DNA from: an uncultured virus (IMG/VR IMGVR_UViG_3300037245_002282)
Taxonomy: Duplodnaviria; Heunggongvirae; Uroviricota; Caudoviricetes
DNA length: 34,050 bases
Reading direction: 5' to 3' (one strand)
Virus record (IMG/VR): IMGVR_UViG_3300037245_002282
The notes beneath the pieces were generated by a model. That model saw only the letters and a list, made by a program, of their open reading frames with translations. It was not told where the DNA came from and did no database searches. Both the position numbers and the translations under genes were made by a program. Below are positions 1-17,072 of this stretch, piece by piece; position 1 is the first letter of the stretch, and each line of letters opens with the position of its first letter.

Positions 1-2518
1 CGCCACCAGCAAGGCCCTGTAAAAGAACTCTTGCACCACGAATAGTAACCCAACGCATTCCACGAGCTTTCACTTCATCGGCTGAATAGTATTTCTTACC
101 GTTACCATTCGATTTTCGAAGTTCACCCAGCCAGTAAAACTTAATCGGTTTACCTTTCTCAAGAAGATACCATTGTCCAGTGGTTTTACTCTTAACCATA
201 CTACCGTCCGGGATAGATTTCCGTACTCCAAACCTGTCTACCAGATTTGTGATTCTTTGTTCCATAATTCGCCTCAGTTTCGGGTCTTCAATACCCGCCA
301 AAATAACACCTTTCTTAGCTAATACGTTTGTCAGTTGATCTTGAATATCAACATCTGTTACGAGACCGAACACCGAGGAAGCCGAGCGAGAGGGATCACG
401 TAGACTCTCTACCTCCGTAACGTCGCTGTTAAATGCGGCACCTTTTGGTTTCCCCTGTGCGCGGTATCTCAATGATCCACCATTATCTATTCGCCATATC
501 TTTGAACCATCCCATATCACATTATCATTATCCATACCGAGTACATCCCAGTTACTTACCAACGCATCGGCTACAAATCCATCTCGAATCTGGTCTCTTG
601 CTTCAGCCTGTTCATCGCCATGAAGTTCTGATAATGGAACACCCTCAATAAAATCGGCAACCTGTACAAGCTTCCCTTCTTTATCATGAGAGAGCTGAAC
701 ATCAGGCACATTGATACCTAATATTTTATAGATTCTATTTGCTGTATATTCATCCTTAAGATGGCCTTCACTTGTGGATCGCTTCAAAACTTTTTCTTCA
801 CCGTTGACGAATCTAACTTTAATTGCTCCGCCAGTGGTCCCGCCCAGATTCTTAAGGCTGGCATATGATCCCATACTTTTCGGGCGTTTGCTCCCATTCT
901 GGGGATAGATATAATTCCAGCGACCATTCTTAAAATACTTTTTAACATATTTTTTACCTACTGCTTTCTGTAGATTGGAAGACATAGATTCTTTGACTTC
1001 ATCAGATCCAAATAAGTACATAGCATATTTCAATGAAAGTTTTGTGAAAGCCTCGTTTGTATTATTGGAAGATTTACTCTTCTGAATCAAAGAAACATTC
1101 AATTTCATAAAATTGATATTAGGCCGTCCGTGAGTTTCATAATCCCAATTATCAGGAGCATACTGATCATCCCATTTAATAGATTCAGTTATTTCAAAGC
1201 CATACTTAGAATATATCTTCGGCAGAACATCACCGAAACAATCCAATTTCTTTGCACCATTTTTAATCGATGTCTTCATAATTAAAGAACCTTCACGGGC
1301 ACCCGGTTCAGAGAAAACAGAGATAAGATCTCCATCCCCTGTAATAACAAAACCGCTCTTACCGGTAGCGGATACAAATGTCTTAGCTCCTTTCTTTTCA
1401 TAATCTTCTGCACTATACGCTGTAACAAAGGCTTCAAACTCTTTGGGAGTCTTCGCGTTTCTGATAGGTATAAACTCAGCCAGTGGAACAGAAGAATAAT
1501 CCACGACCGGCGGTGCTGCTTTCTTCGCTGTGAACTCAGCTATAGGTTTCTTTTTAATCTGTTTAGGGTCACGGATATCAACCCATTTACCTTCCGAGAC
1601 TTTTCTACGACCACGGGAAACTGTACCAATCGGCATACGTTTAGCTTTCTGCATATTTGCTTTATCCCATAATTCGGTTATATATTTTCTATCTGTAAAA
1701 TCAAGTTGAGTTCCAAATAAAACGCTAATATACTTAGCACCCTTTTGTTTTAGATTAAAATACCTATGATTACCATCTTCAATATTTATATTTCCTTTAT
1801 AATCAACACTCACCCTTATCGGTTCATTGGGATTTCTAGGTTTATGTTTACCTATCGTAGTTTCTTTAGTATGCCCTTTTGTAGGCTGTATTTCAGATAT
1901 TAAGAGTCGCATTGGTTTTCTATTATTCATAAAATCAGAAGCACTAGTGTATGCTTTCGCTTCTTCGTTAATAGAATGTCCTTTTAAAGAATGCTTAAAA
2001 TCAGTATACGTATATACTGGCTTCCCATTAACTATTTTTTTAGAGATATACTTATGACTTAAAGCTTTTTTCAGCTTCATACCACGCTTTTCCTTCAGCA
2101 TGATTTTAAAAGTCGCCATGTCCACAATGGTCATGTCCTGATAAAACTTAGGATTATCGTACTGATTGATATACGCGGTTTTCGCTTCAACAGCGCTGTT
2201 AAATCCTAAAAGAACCTTATCTTCATCATAAGCGCCTGTCTCCGGGACCTGTTGATGAATGATGAATACTTTATCACTGAACTTATTATTTCCCAGATAC
2301 ACATCGACATGATCACCATCTGTACCTTCTGTAGCCCGCACGTAGCCGTATTGGAAATGCATGAAATTCCGCCATGGTATCCCGGTTAACGGATTCATAC
2401 CCTGACGATAACTACCTCTCTCATTTTCTATAGAGATAGGAAGACCCTGAAACTTACATTTTCCTTGTAGTTTATGACTGCGCCAGTCGACTGCATTAGT
2501 GATTATACCGCGTTTCAC
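1..2518 (-). CDS. Large multidomain (polyvalent-type) protein, >839 aa, truncated at the window edge: inorganic pyrophosphatase-like, ParB/Srx-like, GNAT-like and HipA/PI3K-like kinase domains
   Basis: Not in the ORF track. Manual translation from GTG at 2518 (directly after the upstream TAA) stays open to position 2. Motifs: YGYVRATEGTDGDHVDVYLG...DEDKVLLGF (~2090-2500); IEDGNHRY (~1760-1785); GAKKLDCFGDVLPKIYSKYGF...WDDQYAP (~1110-1500); LGGTTGGA..VLK..E..NWDVLGMDNDN..RIDNGGSL (~260-860). Confidence 0.85.
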   Translation of the reverse strand, partial: MKRGIITNAVDWRSHKLQGKCKFQGLPISIENERGSYRQGMNPLTGIPWRNFMHFQYGYVRATEGTDGDHVDVYLGNNKFSDKVFIIHQQVPETGAYDEDKVLLGFNSAVEAKTAYINQYDNPKFYQDMTIVDMATFKIMLKEKRGMKLKKALSHKYISKKIVNGKPVYTYTDFKHSLKGHSINEEAKAYTSASDFMNNRKPMRLLISEIQPTKGHTKETTIGKHKPRNPNEPIRVSVDYKGNINIEDGNHRYFNLKQKGAKYISVLFGTQLDFTDRKYITELWDKANMQKAKRMPIGTVSRGRRKVSEGKWVDIRDPKQIKKKPIAEFTAKKAAPPVVDYSSVPLAEFIPIRNAKTPKEFEAFVTAYSAEDYEKKGAKTFVSATGKSGFVITGDGDLISVFSEPGAREGSLIMKTSIKNGAKKLDCFGDVLPKIYSKYGFEITESIKWDDQYAPDNWDYETHGRPNINFMKLNVSLIQKSKSSNNTNEAFTKLSLKYAMYLFGSDEVKESMSSNLQKAVGKKYVKKYFKNGRWNYIYPQNGSKRPKSMGSYASLKNLGGTTGGAIKVRFVNGEEKVLKRSTSEGHLKDEYTANRIYKILGINVPDVQLSHDKEGKLVQVADFIEGVPLSELHGDEQAEARDQIRDGFVADALVSNWDVLGMDNDNVIWDGSKIWRIDNGGSLRYRAQGKPKGAAFNSDVTEVESLRDPSRSASSVFGLVTDVDIQDQLTNVLAKKGVILAGIEDPKLRRIMEQRITNLVDRFGVRKSIPDGSMVKSKTTGQWYLLEKGKPIKFYWLGELRKSNGNGKKYYSADEVKARGMRWVTIRGARVLLQGLAGG

Positions 2519-3010
2519 TTACGATCTCACTTTATGTTTAACTTTTGAAAGATCTACTTTACTAATATGTGCACCACCACCCTTAATAGCTACCTTAAAA
2601 CCACCAATGGGCGTTTTAAAATACATGCTATGCCGATCTTCACCGGTACCTAGAAATACCATGTGAGATTTATCCCCTTTATTACGTATAATATCTGCCA
2701 AACGAAGCATAGTATTTCGATCTGTCGGTTGACCGCCAGCATTCTTTAACGCCAAGGATACCACTCTCTGTATACCTTTCGGTAGACTAGTCATAAACTT
2801 ATCCCCATCACCCGACGATACTGTATTATCAGAATCTTTTTTTGCATATATCTTTTCAGGTTCTATTTTCTTCGCGATACGCTTTTGACCACCTTTGGGA
2901 CCGTATTCATACTTATAGTTCCCCGGCGATCCAGTCCGTTTGGTATATCGCGCTTTACGAAGTTCCTGAGCATACTCTCTAGCACTAAAAATTATAATTT
3001 CTCGTTCCAT
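2519..3010 (-). CDS. Hypothetical basic protein with LRKA-tag N-terminus (likely head-associated)
   Basis: ORF 2519..3109; the better start is ATG at 3010 (MEREIII...), after AAGGA and abutting the upstream stop. Contains ELRKARYTKRTGSPGNYKYEY. Confidence 0.7.
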   Translation of the reverse strand: MEREIIIFSAREYAQELRKARYTKRTGSPGNYKYEYGPKGGQKRIAKKIEPEKIYAKKDSDNTVSSGDGDKFMTSLPKGIQRVVSLALKNAGGQPTDRNTMLRLADIIRNKGDKSHMVFLGTGEDRHSMYFKTPIGGFKVAIKGGGAHISKVDLSKVKHKVRS

Positions 3011-3011
3011 A

Positions 3012-3242
3012 TCATTCCTTCTTTTTAAATGCGGGGCATTCGAATATAGCTGACGAAGTACCATACTTAAGATTAAATGCCAGTAATTCCGTAGCGATAT
3101 GACATCCATAAATACCCTTCATCATATAAAACTTACAATCAGGACAGAGCATATGATCGTGATAATCCCACCCGTCATTTTTCTTAACAGCTTCATAGCC
3201 GTGTCCGTGAACAGATTTTATTTTACCATTATTTGTACCCAT
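3012..3242 (-). CDS. Small Cys-rich hypothetical protein
   Basis: 76 aa, CPDC...C...C pattern, AGGT upstream, fits tightly between its neighbours. Confidence 0.6.
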   Translation of the reverse strand: MGTNNGKIKSVHGHGYEAVKKNDGWDYHDHMLCPDCKFYMMKGIYGCHIATELLAFNLKYGTSSAIFECPAFKKKE

Positions 3243-3248
3243 GGGGAC

Positions 3249-3917
3249 CTACTTTTTAGGAGTACGTACCTTCGGAGGTTGATGTTTACTTGCGCTCTCA
3301 GGTGCACTTGATCCAATTTCTTCAGGACGTACAATAATGGTCCTTCGACCAAAATTGTTATATGCTTGACTACCAGAACCAGAAACAGAAGTAGAATAAT
3401 TTGTATAGGGTTTCTTTTCCCCCTTTACTCTACCCTTTCCATCCACGCGTTTATTATCCACATGATCCCCTTCATCTTCAGGAATACTTGAGCCGATCAT
3501 TCTTTTAGTGGCCATCTGAGCAAACTTAATTCTCTCAGCGTGACCCTCGTAAGGAATCTTGCTTTTTATCTTACCCCCCGGAGCCGATAAGCTCGCCGGA
3601 TGCTGCGCTTTTTCCAGAGGTTCAATTTCTCCGGGAATTATAATCAATGCAAATCTTGTTTTCATATCACCCTCCACAAGCGATTTTTCCACCTTTGAAA
3701 GATGGGTATAATATTTTGAATCTTCATGCAAGTGATCCAGCGCAATCTCCCGCGCTACAGACTTACTTGAAGTATGTTCCATTTCCACTTTAATTCCACG
3801 GGCTAATTCTTTAGGATCTACATTCATTGAATGACCTTCCTTATGAAGACCTTCTTTTTTTAAATGAGCCACAGCGGCTTTACTCATTATTATTATCCTC
3901 CGCCGGATCAAATCCAA
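3249..3917 (-). CDS. DUF5661-like protein
   Basis: ELARGIKVEMEHT...AREIALDHLHEDSKYYTHL matches the DUF5661 motif as recalled. The start is uncertain. Confidence 0.7.
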   Translation of the reverse strand: MDLIRRRIIIMSKAAVAHLKKEGLHKEGHSMNVDPKELARGIKVEMEHTSSKSVAREIALDHLHEDSKYYTHLSKVEKSLVEGDMKTRFALIIIPGEIEPLEKAQHPASLSAPGGKIKSKIPYEGHAERIKFAQMATKRMIGSSIPEDEGDHVDNKRVDGKGRVKGEKKPYTNYSTSVSGSGSQAYNNFGRRTIIVRPEEIGSSAPESASKHQPPKVRTPKK

Positions 3918-4015: not shown

Positions 4016-4906
4016 TCAGGGTCTTTCAATCTTCCGCCTCCACTTCTCAAAAATAGCAGGGTTTACATAACTACCCAGAGCTACTGCCCTTGTATTACCC
4101 AGTTGATGTGCTACAGCGTCCCCAACTGCCTTAACCCGCTTTTTATATTCAGCCATAGTTGCTGGGGTTTTTCCCCTCATGGCTTTCATAGCCACTTCCG
4201 TTCCAAGATGTGTTCGGAAATCTTTACTTTGAAATCCGGCATTATTATCTAATCTATGGGTATATCTTAAAAGACCATCTCCGGTAACTCCGAATAACCG
4301 CCTATTTTTTCCAGCTTTACTCTTTCGCTTCAATAACATCTTAGCTACATCCGCATCCTTTACAGGAATCTCAAGATCAACTCCTTTTTTTCCGATGAAC
4401 TTGAGGGATACACCTGACTCGGTTCGCATCACGTGTCTGCCTTCCAGCGTTGTGGCTCCGAATGCGTCCACGCTGCCTCTGGTATTCTTTTCGCTTCCCG
4501 GTCTTATCCCCGTACTCATTATCAGCCATAACACCGTAGCGGCCTCGTTTTTTCCCTTTACGTCGGCTGCCACTTCCCTGCTGATTTCCTCGAACACCTT
4601 GTTCAGGGATTTGATCCTCGCAAACTTCTCTTTGCTCGCAGCGTCTACATGTGCCGGATTGTAAATGTATTGCACACGCCCTTTCGCGTCTTCGCCTTTC
4701 ACCCACAGCTTCGATTTCGGATCGTTGAAGTACTGAAGATTCTTCCATGCAGGCGGAACTTTGAACTTGTTCTGTATACGAGCCGGTAGTTCTCTCCGAT
4801 GCTTCACCGGTACCCACCTGCCCTCTGCTACTTTCACGTACTTTCCGCTCTTGCTCTTCGCACCTATAGCTACGCGTTTCGCTTTGGTAAAAATAACCAG
4901 TACCAT
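4016..4906 (-). CDS. DNA topoisomerase IB (bacterial/viral type)
   Basis: VPPAW, GEDAKGRVQYIY, GIRPGSE (Arg), FIGKKG (Lys), KDFRT (Arg) and LGNTRAVALGSYVNP (catalytic Tyr). Confidence 0.9.
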   Translation of the reverse strand: MVLVIFTKAKRVAIGAKSKSGKYVKVAEGRWVPVKHRRELPARIQNKFKVPPAWKNLQYFNDPKSKLWVKGEDAKGRVQYIYNPAHVDAASKEKFARIKSLNKVFEEISREVAADVKGKNEAATVLWLIMSTGIRPGSEKNTRGSVDAFGATTLEGRHVMRTESGVSLKFIGKKGVDLEIPVKDADVAKMLLKRKSKAGKNRRLFGVTGDGLLRYTHRLDNNAGFQSKDFRTHLGTEVAMKAMRGKTPATMAEYKKRVKAVGDAVAHQLGNTRAVALGSYVNPAIFEKWRRKIERP

Positions 4907-4909
4907 TTA

Positions 4910-6481
4910 TCATTCCACCACTATCCGCAACGTTCGCTCTTTTGATTTAGTCAAAGAACGTAACTCTTTTAAAGACTTTTCAGCCCTAACTTCATCTTTT
5001 TCCGTTCTAGTAGAATTGACCTCTTTTTCACCCGCATCTTCCTCATCGGCATTTGATGATTCAGAATACTGGCCCTCTCCGAGATCACCATAATCACCCA
5101 TACCCTGTTCTTGCATAGCTGCTTGTTGTTCCTGAGCTTTACCTGCGAGGAATATCTGTACAGCCTGAGCATTCATAGGCATCTTTGACCAGTCTTCATT
5201 ATACGGTTCATCCCCATCTTCAACACGAACTTCATCAATAGACCGCCATCCCATAATTTGTTTATTACGGACTTCAGCTTTCTTCTGTTCATCCTCACGC
5301 TCAAGACCAACAAACTTAAATCTATATTTTTTGGTTACTTTTCTAATAACTTTATTAACATGCTGTTCAGCAAATCCCAGCATGGAAGCAAGTCCCCTAT
5401 CTTTAGAAGACTGAATTCTCGGTTCCGCATTCTCACTTATAATTGATGTACTATCGTCTGTTTTAATTCCCAGCTCGGCAAGATCCATTGAGAAAACAGC
5501 ACCAACAAGAGAGGATATAAACATCATTGTCTTATGATATTCCATATCTTTATTGTTTGATGATAAGTTTTTGAAATCGATCCCCACACCATCTTTACCA
5601 CTCGGGAGAATTGGAATATTAAATTGAGCACCTGCACCTGTCATAGCTGCATACCAATAATTTCTAATACTATCGAGCTGAGGTTTTGCCACATCACCCA
5701 TAACTGATATAAAACCTTTCGGCACACGATCCTTGATCAACTGATCTCTGATATAATTGTAACCGAATAAAAGTGTGGTTATGATATTGATACACATTTC
5801 AACAGGACTGTATCCATAACCTCTATATTTAACGTCAGATCTTTTAAATTTATAATCAAATATAAGATTTTCACTCTTATACTCTTCATAAATCTTATCA
5901 TCAATTTTCTGAACAAATCGAATATCCTTACCCCACCGCTTTTCATCAGTAACACGTGATATAGTTGCGCCGTCTAATGCCCAGAATGCCACCGGCTCGC
6001 CCATTCTATTGTATTGAATCTCCGTAGCAATCTGATCAATTTCATAAGTGTCCCTAACAAGCATGGATATATAATCCATAAAGTCATCCTCACGTTCCCC
6101 GTCAAATACAAAACCGGTCTGTTCTATGAAATTAGTTAATTGGATTATTTCACTTTCATTTTCCTTTTCACCCCTGAACTCTTCTGTCCGATTTTCAATC
6201 TCAAAACGAAAACCACGGTCATTCTGTTCCGTGGCATATTTTAAAAAGGGGAGAATCTGATCCTGTCGAGTATTGATAATCCCATTGATTAACGGCAACT
6301 GACCAACAGAGCGTCTGAGTGTTTCAAAATTAAGCTGAAGAATACGTTCACGTACTCCCTGCGCCCCGCCCCATAACCAATTTTGGACTCTTGGATCTAC
6401 GAGCTGACTAGTTAATTTTTTAATCGTGGCATCTTCATTAAAGCTGACTGCTGTGTTATTATTTTTCTTTCTTCTTGCCAT
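4910..6481 (-). CDS. Phage portal protein
   Basis: ~523 aa with YGYSPVE, VPKGFISV, IPILP, DMEY and WRSIDEVRVEDGDEP segments typical of large-phage portals, plus an acidic C-terminal tail. Probable start ATG 6481 (MARRKK) with GAGGT upstream. Confidence 0.88.
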   Translation of the reverse strand: MARRKKNNNTAVSFNEDATIKKLTSQLVDPRVQNWLWGGAQGVRERILQLNFETLRRSVGQLPLINGIINTRQDQILPFLKYATEQNDRGFRFEIENRTEEFRGEKENESEIIQLTNFIEQTGFVFDGEREDDFMDYISMLVRDTYEIDQIATEIQYNRMGEPVAFWALDGATISRVTDEKRWGKDIRFVQKIDDKIYEEYKSENLIFDYKFKRSDVKYRGYGYSPVEMCINIITTLLFGYNYIRDQLIKDRVPKGFISVMGDVAKPQLDSIRNYWYAAMTGAGAQFNIPILPSGKDGVGIDFKNLSSNNKDMEYHKTMMFISSLVGAVFSMDLAELGIKTDDSTSIISENAEPRIQSSKDRGLASMLGFAEQHVNKVIRKVTKKYRFKFVGLEREDEQKKAEVRNKQIMGWRSIDEVRVEDGDEPYNEDWSKMPMNAQAVQIFLAGKAQEQQAAMQEQGMGDYGDLGEGQYSESSNADEEDAGEKEVNSTRTEKDEVRAEKSLKELRSLTKSKERTLRIVVE

Positions 6482-6509
6482 GGATATCTGGTACCTCACT
6501 ATTAAGTTG

Positions 6510-9629: not shown

Positions 9630-10526
9630 TCACAAATTATCAGCAATGTTCTGAAGTGTCTGTTTCGAAGCAGCTTCCAAATCAACAGCTTTATCCCACA
9701 GCGCGTGATCTACATGAGCTTCCACTGCGTCATCAACCACTTGCTCAAGCACTGAAGGCTGCAAGGCATCTAGTTCCCATGAAGCATCTCCGTACTGATC
9801 GGCATAAACTTCAAATCTTGAGTCAGTCTGTTTAGCGGGATTCTCCGGGGGATTGTATAATTTGATCTGAGGCATATTAAGAGCTATACGATCCACTACA
9901 ATCGGAATATCCTCTTCAGCCTCTTCCCGGTATCCAAGGAACAAGTTCATCCTGTCTTCAACATCTCGTGTCATATCCATCCCAGACGGATCGTGGTCTC
10001 CCAAATAAATCAGATGTAAATACTTCCCTTCGAAATGTGCTGCCTCAAATCTCTTCCCGGCTTCGTACAATGCACTCTGACTTGAATATCCACGATTAGC
10101 CATAAAGATTACATCCCACTTCGAACAGACCGGCTGAATGATATTTGATACGGCGTCTTTTTCACACCACACCTCAACATATTCATTTTGATACTTCCAG
10201 CGACTTTCATAATATCCATTGACTGCTGCATCAAGAATATGTTTCGGATTTCTCCAATGAGTATTCTCTTTAGGATTTCTCACCCTGTCCTCAATCATAT
10301 TCCAGTCAATGAATCCGGCCAACCTGCCCTTATTCACAACATTCCCGATCTTCTTATATTCCCTTTGATTATTCGGGATATGATCTCCCGCTACCAACTG
10401 ATAATACAATTGTCTCAATGTCAGTTTATATCCTTGACTTCTATAATCCTCAAGGATATCATTTATGATATCAATCAATTCCATAGATCTAGCAGACGGT
10501 CGCCATGGTGTAAACTCTTCTTTCAT
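9630..10526 (-). CDS. TOPRIM-domain protein of the Topo VI-A/Spo11/DUF2399-like group
   Basis: TLRQLYYQLV (winged-helix Tyr region), VEVWCEKDA (Glu) and YLGDHDPSG (DxD). Confidence 0.75.
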   Translation of the reverse strand: MKEEFTPWRPSARSMELIDIINDILEDYRSQGYKLTLRQLYYQLVAGDHIPNNQREYKKIGNVVNKGRLAGFIDWNMIEDRVRNPKENTHWRNPKHILDAAVNGYYESRWKYQNEYVEVWCEKDAVSNIIQPVCSKWDVIFMANRGYSSQSALYEAGKRFEAAHFEGKYLHLIYLGDHDPSGMDMTRDVEDRMNLFLGYREEAEEDIPIVVDRIALNMPQIKLYNPPENPAKQTDSRFEVYADQYGDASWELDALQPSVLEQVVDDAVEAHVDHALWDKAVDLEAASKQTLQNIADNL

Positions 10527-15797: not shown

Positions 15798-17072
15798 TCA
15801 CTCCTTATCTTTAAATAATAAATCTGTATACCGTGCCGGATCACCTTTCGATCCAAGAAGAGCACTGTTTAAATTACACCCTATAGTATCTGTAAATATT
15901 ATACCGTCAAAACTATACTCTGGAAATATATATTCAGAATACTCCTTTACAGCAACAGCTGGAATATCTCTAAACTCTATTATATGATCAACACGTCCCT
16001 TTCGATAAAGAGCAGGGTCAATCTTATCGAGATGATTCGTTGTCAGAAATATTATCACATTATGTATATTTTCTATCCCGTCCAACCCGTTTAATAAGCC
16101 GGATAAAGTTGTAAAGGTAAAGTCACACTCTTCTATTTTTGATAACGGATGTTTATCACCATTAGAATCTTCAGATCTCTCTGTTCTTCTTTTCCTTGCG
16201 GCCTTAGTAGAATCAAAATCCTCTATAACCACAAAGGAGTTGGGAGGTGTTTGAGATAAAGCTCTCTGAAAAGAAGTATCTGAAACAGATCCGATATTCA
16301 ATATACATAAGTTTTTATCATAATAAGATGCAAGAGTTTTTATAGTGCTGGTCTTCCCTGTACCGGGTATTCCATGAAGAATATACGTAAGCTTATACGG
16401 CAGGCCTTTTGATACAAACCAGTCTTCATTTGAATTAAAATGTTTTATATCATTCAATAACCGCTGTTTTATTTCGTAATCAAGAGCCAATGACTCAATC
16501 GGACGTTTTTTCATAGGTGCATTTTTTCGCCAACTATCGTTGTAATGATATGAGAATATTTCATTCTTTTTCTCTTTCGGAGCAAACTCTTTTATGAAGC
16601 TATCTAATATCGATTTATTTCTACCGAAATACTTTAATAATATTGATCGTTTTTGAAGCTCTGATCCAGATGATTCAATAGCCGATAAAACCATCCACAT
16701 AATTTTACCTTTGTATATAAACCAGTGTGTTCCATATCCGGGACCTAATATAACGCTTTCTATCTCCCGCTTTAAGTCATCGTCCCACCCCTCATAGGTA
16801 TAAATAGAAAGAAATCTTGAGAACCTTAAAAATCCTTTATTTTCAGACAACCACTGCATACACGAATAATAAATCTTTTGATGGTAATATCCCTGCGCGT
16901 TATCAAACTCAAGGGAAGTAATCAACTGAGTTTTTATCTTTGAAAATATTTTTGCAGGAATAGTTCTTATCAGAAATGTTATTACAGTTAAACCCCATAA
17001 AGATATAACCCCGGCAAGTATAGGTGACGTCGATGCAAGTTCCGTTAATCTTAAATATATATCCGTTAACAT
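15798..17072 (-). CDS. BCS1-like membrane-anchored AAA+ ATPase
   Basis: N-terminal TM helix, PGYGTHWFIYKG (BCS1-N-like), Walker A GIPGTGKT, Walker B VVIEDFD, TLSGLLNGLDG and TTNHLDKIDPALYRKGRVD. Confidence 0.88.
   Translation of the reverse strand: MLTDIYLRLTELASTSPILAGVISLWGLTVITFLIRTIPAKIFSKIKTQLITSLEFDNAQGYYHQKIYYSCMQWLSENKGFLRFSRFLSIYTYEGWDDDLKREIESVILGPGYGTHWFIYKGKIMWMVLSAIESSGSELQKRSILLKYFGRNKSILDSFIKEFAPKEKKNEIFSYHYNDSWRKNAPMKKRPIESLALDYEIKQRLLNDIKHFNSNEDWFVSKGLPYKLTYILHGIPGTGKTSTIKTLASYYDKNLCILNIGSVSDTSFQRALSQTPPNSFVVIEDFDSTKAARKRRTERSEDSNGDKHPLSKIEECDFTFTTLSGLLNGLDGIENIHNVIIFLTTNHLDKIDPALYRKGRVDHIIEFRDIPAVAVKEYSEYIFPEYSFDGIIFTDTIGCNLNSALLGSKGDPARYTDLLFKDKE

Follow-up and report, generated by a model that had tools for sequence, protein, structure and literature searches.

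A phage-type polyvalent protein with pyrophosphatase-, ParB/sulfiredoxin-, GNAT- and kinase-like domains and a C-terminal SNF2 ATPase, encoded close to a portal gene

Phage polyvalent proteins have been described by Iyer, Burroughs, Anand, de Souza and Aravind (2017, J Bacteriol; PMC5512222). The parts of that account drawn on here list InPase, ParB-like, GNAT, kinase and SWI2/SNF2 domains among their components, and propose that these proteins are packaged in the phage head, injected with the DNA and active early against the host. The class is defined by two or more biochemically disparate domains in a single polypeptide of a phage or conjugative element, with the phage type linked to portal-terminase packaging. 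DarB of phage P1 is presented there as a SWI2/SNF2 ATPase coupled to an adenine methylase. Here, we analysed a gene at the start of a 34,050 nucleotide stretch of DNA (the window) from an uncultured virus assigned to the Caudoviricetes (IMG/VR IMGVR_UViG_3300037245_002282). The original prediction, made from the window by itself, was of an ORF (open reading frame) that runs off the window and encodes a phage/plasmid polyvalent protein, with pyrophosphatase-, ParB-, GNAT- and kinase-like domains in that order and the start of a fifth module. Our analysis supports the classification of the product as a phage-type polyvalent protein, a further member of the known class. The domain order is InPase, ParB/sulfiredoxin (Srx)-like, GNAT, CtkA/HipA-like kinase, approximately 400 amino acids (aa) without a family, and SNF2. 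The exact order is not among the architectures of PMC5512222 that were compared, and is possibly new.

The open frame is genuine, and a full-length copy of the gene exists in another record. The frame has no stop at the window edge, as predicted, and the retrieval of downstream sequence that had been proposed completed it. The whole gene comprises 1783 codons, of which the window holds 839; the other 944 lie beyond the window start, and were taken from a separate viral record (G001) that encodes the same 839 residues with 100% identity in a 1783 aa frame without internal stops. G001 has 56% of the sampled words of the window in common. An identical protein from M53 onward (P0157, 1731 aa) is on record from three contigs, the longest of 96,050 bases, and the frame is therefore no assembly accident of the window. 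The GTG start abuts the TAA of the upstream ORF and is backed by the N-termini of relatives, with residue 1 of P0015 aligned to residue 1 of the query, and residue 2 of P0004 to residue 3. It should be noted that the database gene call for P0157 starts at M53 (window 2363-2518, minus strand), inside the InPase domain. This call cuts into the first domain: the InPase match already starts at aa 18, and the GTG at 2518 is supported by homologs.

The pyrophosphatase-like domain was identified by a curated profile. Pfam PF18823 matched with an E value of 7.1e-38 (130 bits against a cut-off of 26.8) over profile positions 11-134 of 135, and an acidic cluster lies among the residues that were invariant in seven sequences, the query and six relatives (E31, R38, Y57, D67, D69, D72, D98, E99, D100 and K101). 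The acidic residues presumably have catalytic and metal-binding roles, by analogy with family I pyrophosphatases. The InPase domain is followed by a conserved G-M-K-L-K-K site. PHROG families matching the InPase part were 'minor head protein', 'virion structural protein' and 'DarB-like antirestriction', the last with E 8.8e-20 and two matched stretches in the full-length protein.

The profile searches proposed with the original prediction bore out the InPase domain in Pfam, and came back empty in Pfam, NCBIfam and PDB sequence searches for the ParB-, GNAT- and kinase-like domains. NCBIfam (E ≤ 1) gave no match to the entire 839 aa protein, and Pfam (E ≤ 10), searched with the whole protein and three middle segments, had HipA_C at E 0.27 as its single match to the ParB-, GNAT- and kinase-like parts. 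Single-sequence PDB searches with aa 160-510 and aa 510-839 returned chance-level rows only. A PDB search with a profile of the A6 alignment returned C3larvin as its sole row, from extra columns contributed by other sequences. Because the three middle domains escape sequence profiles, relatives were gathered and structures were predicted. All four domains were recovered in the predicted order, InPase by its curated profile and the other three by predicted structure and conserved residues. Conservation of catalytic residues, the second check proposed, was found across relatives in both the InPase and kinase-like domains.

The GNAT-like and kinase-like domains are both covered by one AlphaFold2 model (aa 318-800; 40-sequence alignment; mean pLDDT 85.5). 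The kinase-like part is modelled with a bilobal kinase fold, and Foldseek gave at least 500 PDB matches at E ≤ 0.001, headed by CtkA of Helicobacter pylori (9.7e-7), with PknG, Rio kinases and actin-fragmin kinase next. Six residues were invariant in 40 diverse relatives: G560 in the glycine-rich loop, K579, E590, D658, N666 and D678. Their roles (ATP-binding Lys, helix-C Glu, catalytic Asp and Asn, metal-binding Asp) were assigned by motif position and not by superposition. The predicted kinase was borne out as an atypical, CtkA/HipA/PI4KII-like protein-kinase-like domain whose active site is predicted to be intact. Sequence identity to the atypical kinases CtkA, HipA, CotH and PI4KII-alpha (PDB 3akj, 4pu3, 5jda and 4hnd) is 12-19%; unlike these, the window domain is embedded in a phage multi-domain protein and lacks a Pfam kinase match beyond the HipA_C hit. 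ESM Atlas labelled the kinase part HipA_2, PI3_PI4_kinase and actin-fragmin kinase (scores 0.90-0.91), labels that were used only as leads.

The polyvalent kinase family is characterized, in the part of PMC5512222 compared, by loss of the whole C-terminal subdomain and by specific Glu/Gln features. In the window model, helices (model residues 385-446) still follow the catalytic strands as a small helical C-lobe, so the window kinase appears, by description, to be a CtkA/HipA/PI4KII-like domain with C-lobe helices and unlike the C-lobe-less polyvalent kinase. Pfam gave no match to a kinase model particular to polyvalent proteins, either in the window protein or among the 25 of 30 families listed for its relatives. 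A literature search on CtkA in phage or polyvalent proteins returned host-range papers only.

A HMMER search with aa 160-839 against 1.84 billion representatives gave 7251 matches at E ≤ 0.001, and nearly all of the best 150 cover aa ~545-770. The kinase-like family is thus very large (4106 representative clusters at E ≤ 1e-10) and is without a curated Pfam model as such, which makes it a clear target for testing what phages phosphorylate on entry. Pfam scans of 40 relatives found ADPrib_exo_Tox in 16, Phage_Mu_F in 14, Portal_Mu and InPase in 4 each, and NUDIX and 2H in 2 each. The best structure match in BFVD was a 1201 aa 'phage portal protein' (E 6.6e-19), and further matches were named ADP-ribosyltransferase or 'large polyvalent protein associated domain'. 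A 2146 aa Yersinia phage protein with the kinase-like region in common is annotated 'phage particle associated protein'. The 3416 aa relative P0003 carries five tandem-dispersed copies of the kinase-like domain and an ADP-ribosyltransferase domain, and HipA_2, HipA_C and APH matches from Pfam fall inside copies 1, 3 and 5.

The GNAT-like part of the same model reached a pLDDT >90 over most of its length, and its predicted strands and helices follow the canonical GNAT order, in agreement with the original prediction. The sequence signal is faint. Acetyltransf_7 was seen at E 0.023 in one of nine family members, and three GNAT models were seen in the relative P0024 at E 0.0016-0.095, all below cut-off. 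When compared with RimI-like GNAT N-acetyltransferases (PDB 5isv and others), the window protein lacks a Pfam GNAT match at cut-off; no Pfam GNAT model reached cut-off in its eight close homologs either, and a profile of the family gave 0 matches in the PDB. An invariant P405...G410 loop is motif-like only: the window reads PGAREG after strand 4, and the usual GNAT motif is Q/R-x-x-G-x-G/A. Close homologs are few, comprising eight short stand-alone proteins and the GNAT-kinase combinations P0024, P0013, P0134 and P0138. An 'acetyltransferase' of Streptomyces phage Ejemplo matched aa 289-482 with 28% identity; it has no Pfam match of its own, and was set aside as support.

The ParB/Srx-like module is the weakest of the four domain calls, and we accept the fold assignment with moderate confidence. 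A model from a four-sequence alignment had a mean pLDDT of 65.8 (core 73-89), and one of the five models was confident. It is predicted to adopt the alpha+beta fold of the ParB/Srx superfamily, with four strands and two helices. Among the Foldseek matches listed, 28 of 30 rows were ParB, Noc, KorB, SbnI, sulfiredoxin, free serine kinase or PadC (best E 2.1e-3), and structure comparison gave Z scores of at most 5.7. The scores are weak, and the superfamily (ParB, Noc, KorB, Srx, SbnI, free serine kinase, Osa and GmrS) is essentially the sole fold matched by the model of aa 175-300, consistent with the predicted ParB-like domain. Members of this superfamily include CTPases, ATP-dependent phosphotransferases, small-molecule kinases and nucleases. 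The sequence D248-G-N-H-R252, invariant in all four members, starts a helix (model residues 76-84) after the third strand, so that R252 may correspond, by position, to the conserved arginine of the superfamily. That conserved arginine is described in the portion of PMC5512222 considered. Unlike the wider superfamily, the module belongs to a tiny family of four members and is shortened between strands 1 and 2.

We conclude that the module represents a very small unclassified family. Neither ParB_N nor ddrB-ParB (PF18763) matched it in Pfam at E ≤ 10, which sets it apart from the DdrB-type ParB-like domain as that domain appears in the sections of PMC5512222 compared. A link to ddrB-ParB through the relative P0158 was considered and rejected, as PF18763 at aa 285-409 adjoins the module at aa 140-252 and does not lie over it. 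Searches of phage genomes, near-length proteins, and viral and metagenome contigs found three relatives in all, each inside a large multi-domain protein: P0156 (1083 aa), P0158 (1158 aa) and P0159 (1529 aa). ESM Atlas labelled the ParB part ParB_N (score 0.90-0.91), which served as a lead only. P0156 is encoded on an unrelated 81 kb viral contig (L006 2266-5517, plus strand), and has the same ParB/Srx-like module and no Pfam match. Its C-terminal end contains HEYAHMMD, of HExxH type, which by eye resembles a zincin peptidase.

The predicted fifth module does begin at the window edge, with MRWVTIRGARVLL at aa 821-833, and continues for approximately 400 aa without a detectable family. Neither the PDB (aa 800-1240 of the full protein) nor Pfam at E ≤ 10 gave a match to this stretch. 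Beyond it, outside the window, the full-length protein in G001 has a SNF2 ATPase at aa 1338-1721, matched by SNF2-rel_dom (PF00176, 2.1e-13; 50.5 bits against a cut-off of 24.9) and Helicase_C (PF00271, 6.2e-8), and in the PDB by SsoRad54 (2.4e-9) and RapA (1.1e-5).

As in the polyvalent proteins of PMC5512222, to the extent that they were compared, several disparate enzyme domains stand in one polypeptide that is phage-encoded beside a portal gene; at least two disparate activities are predicted. The domain set, the portal gene three genes away, and the fusion of kinase-like relatives to MuF, portal or ADP-ribosyltransferase domains agree with the predicted phage/plasmid polyvalent type. The window protein differs from the polyvalent proteins, as the compared part of PMC5512222 describes them, in that the MPTase peptidase was not found in it. 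DarB and the present protein are alike in being large, of virion type and equipped with a SWI2/SNF2 ATPase, which is C-terminal in the present protein; unlike DarB, ours has no methylase (Pfam, E ≤ 10) and has four other enzyme domains instead.

Two relatives have the end-to-end architecture in common. P0005 has the order InPase, DUF5661, Zeta_toxin, kinase-like and SNF2, and P0004 has InPase, kinase-like, SAM lyase and SNF2. Judged from these domain orders, cassettes in the central part of the protein can be exchanged within a conserved InPase, kinase and SNF2 frame. The three cassette variants (ParB/Srx with GNAT, Zeta toxin with DUF5661, and SAM lyase) represent a natural experiment on interchangeable payloads. 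The protein offers a well-resolved example for a class known almost solely from sequence analysis; it leaves the current picture of that class unchanged and would not surprise a specialist.

We infer packaging, injection, processing and counter-defence, together with every enzymatic activity, and consider a packaged, injected and early-acting protein to be the probable state of affairs. The polyvalent protein would be a late product that enters the capsid and reaches the host together with the DNA, and its parts would be at work within the first minutes after infection. The SNF2 motor may act on the DNA as it enters, a role already proposed for DarB, and the kinase and GNAT domains may modify host proteins. 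InPase could remove pyrophosphate or a nucleotide-derived signal, and the ParB/Srx module could bind or hydrolyse nucleotide, or nick DNA.

Several observations weigh against this proposal. Packaging is argued from gene position and from relatives, and no MuF or portal domain is fused to the window protein. In the full protein, no DNA methylase family was found (Pfam, E ≤ 10), so the analogy with DarB is partial, and the processing peptidase (MPTase) of Iyer et al. was not detected by the same search. Three of the four window domains lack a Pfam, NCBIfam or PDB sequence match, and the ParB/Srx call depends on one confident model of five, the four-sequence alignment and the low Z scores. Neither PHROG (E ≤ 1e-5) nor Pfam at its cut-off assigned a family to the four ORFs downstream in G001. 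A recognizable capsid gene or a terminase was not found nearby, and the window yielded no identifiable terminase. The late structural module is only partly documented for these last two reasons.

The main rival keeps the same domains in an unpackaged protein, a cytoplasmic enzyme of host takeover or DNA metabolism that would be made after infection and act in trans, like the T7 protein kinase. The same-strand genes of nucleotide and DNA metabolism across the rest of the window fit such a role, as do the absence of a MuF or portal fusion (Pfam, E ≤ 10) and of a recognized capsid or terminase gene nearby. The closeness of the portal gene on the same strand argues against it, as do the MuF (14 of 40) and Portal_Mu (4 of 40) domains of kinase-like relatives and the particle-associated annotation of the Yersinia phage relative, and on balance we think it unlikely.

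Far less probable than a cytoplasmic enzyme is a phage-borne polymorphic toxin, similar to MuF toxins, directed against competing bacteria and not serving the phage's own infection. MuF toxins of temperate phages have reportedly been the subject of a study (PMC5576092). Relatives do join the kinase-like domain to ADP-ribosyltransferase and Zeta-toxin domains, and the cassette swapping resembles that of polymorphic toxin loci. Set against this, the protein has no MuF domain and ends in a conserved SNF2 ATPase where a variable C-terminal toxin would be expected; no small immunity-like gene is evident, though no dedicated examination was made; and the record resembles a large lytic-type phage with many DNA-metabolism genes. 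Finally, an artefact (a mis-assembled gene fusion, a missed stop or decayed, inactive domains), for which one could cite the three domains outside all curated profiles and the gene call at M53, is already largely refuted by the identical frame in a separate viral record and three contigs, the end-to-end architecture of P0004 and P0005, the invariant catalytic residues and the high-confidence GNAT and kinase models.

Table 1. Features of the polyvalent protein gene and of the neighbouring genes up to the portal gene, in window coordinates
Feature	Position	Strand	Basis or remark
Polyvalent protein gene, N-terminal 839 codons	2..2518	minus	'3open': no stop before window edge
Start of next section (MRWVTIRGARVLL...), aa 821-839	2..58	minus	Leads into ~400 aa without detectable family, then SNF2
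Atypical protein-kinase-like domain, aa ~545-765	224..886	minus	Predicted structure and catalytic residues
Motif a (YVKKYFKNGRWNYIY), aa 524-538	905..949	minus	Regex scan; precedes kinase-like domain
GNAT-fold acetyltransferase-like domain, aa ~337-477	1088..1510	minus	Predicted structure
Motif b (PIGTVSRGRRKVSEGKWVDI), aa 296-315	1574..1633	minus	Regex scan; between ParB-like module and GNAT domain
ParB/sulfiredoxin-like module, aa ~180-292	1643..1981	minus	Predicted fold and invariant D248-G-N-H-R252
InPase (family I inorganic-pyrophosphatase-like), aa 18-141	2096..2467	minus	Pfam PF18823
Upstream 196 aa ORF with motif a (YTKRTGSPGNYKYEY)	2519..3109	minus	No Pfam above cut-off, no PHROG at E ≤ 0.01
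Motif a in 196 aa ORF	2903-2947	minus	
DUF5661 protein gene	3249..3917	minus	Pfam PF18905 3.6e-10
Type IB topoisomerase-like gene, N-terminal motif b	4016..4906	minus	Pfam Topoisom_I 2.6e-21
Motif b near N-terminus of topoisomerase IB ORF	4805-4870	minus	
Portal protein gene	4910..6499	minus	Pfam Phage_portal 1.4e-17; PHROG 12 portal 1e-35

The polyvalent gene is the fourth after the portal gene on the same strand, preceded by the topoisomerase IB-like gene, the DUF5661 gene and the 196 aa ORF (Table 1). DUF5661 is free-standing in the window and fused in the relative P0005, where it occupies aa 180-219 between InPase and Zeta_toxin. This fusion suggests that the genes between the portal and polyvalent genes are split-off modules of the same set, and the 196 aa ORF is probably a stand-alone module of that set. 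The position directly after the portal gene is an unusual location for a topoisomerase IB-like enzyme.

Short conserved motifs occur at module starts in the polyvalent protein. They recur at module starts in two of the three genes that separate the polyvalent gene from the portal gene. Motif a follows the pattern Y..[KR]..G.W.Y.Y (Y-x-[KR]...G-x-W-x-Y-x-Y), and motif b the pattern PIG..S.G..K..G.WV.V. Motif a was found in 11 of 156 relatives and motif b in 6 of 157 proteins scanned (one being P0002, the protein's own full-length form), each against 0 shuffled proteins; the patterns were written after instances had been seen, and the counts are descriptive and not a test. Motif a opens the stand-alone GNAT-like homologs P0012, P0017 and P0153 and precedes the cassettes in P0004 and P0005. 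In a six-frame scan of the window, both motifs were confined to the block of genes following the portal gene. Roles as linkers, as sites of processing or as tags for loading are conceivable. That the motifs form a shared address or processing tag, for capsid loading or cleavage, is a speculation that we regard as rather doubtful. If the motifs did direct capsid loading or mark cleavage, the post-portal block would be one modular cargo system, in which any enzyme, fused or free, could be packaged and injected, topoisomerase IB included. Module-opening motifs of this kind may explain the shuffling, processing or loading of polyvalent proteins.

Elsewhere in the window, the same strand encodes thymidylate-synthase-like and topoisomerase-like proteins, AAA ATPases and HNH endonucleases. 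A second gene labelled as a topoisomerase lies at 9630-10526 (minus strand), with a match to PHROG 6247 'DNA topoisomerase' at 3.4e-107 and no Pfam family. A BCS1-like AAA ATPase is also encoded in this phage: the 424 aa product of the gene at 15798-17072 (minus strand) has BCS1_N (Pfam, 2.1e-14) and AAA (Pfam, 4.4e-16) domains.

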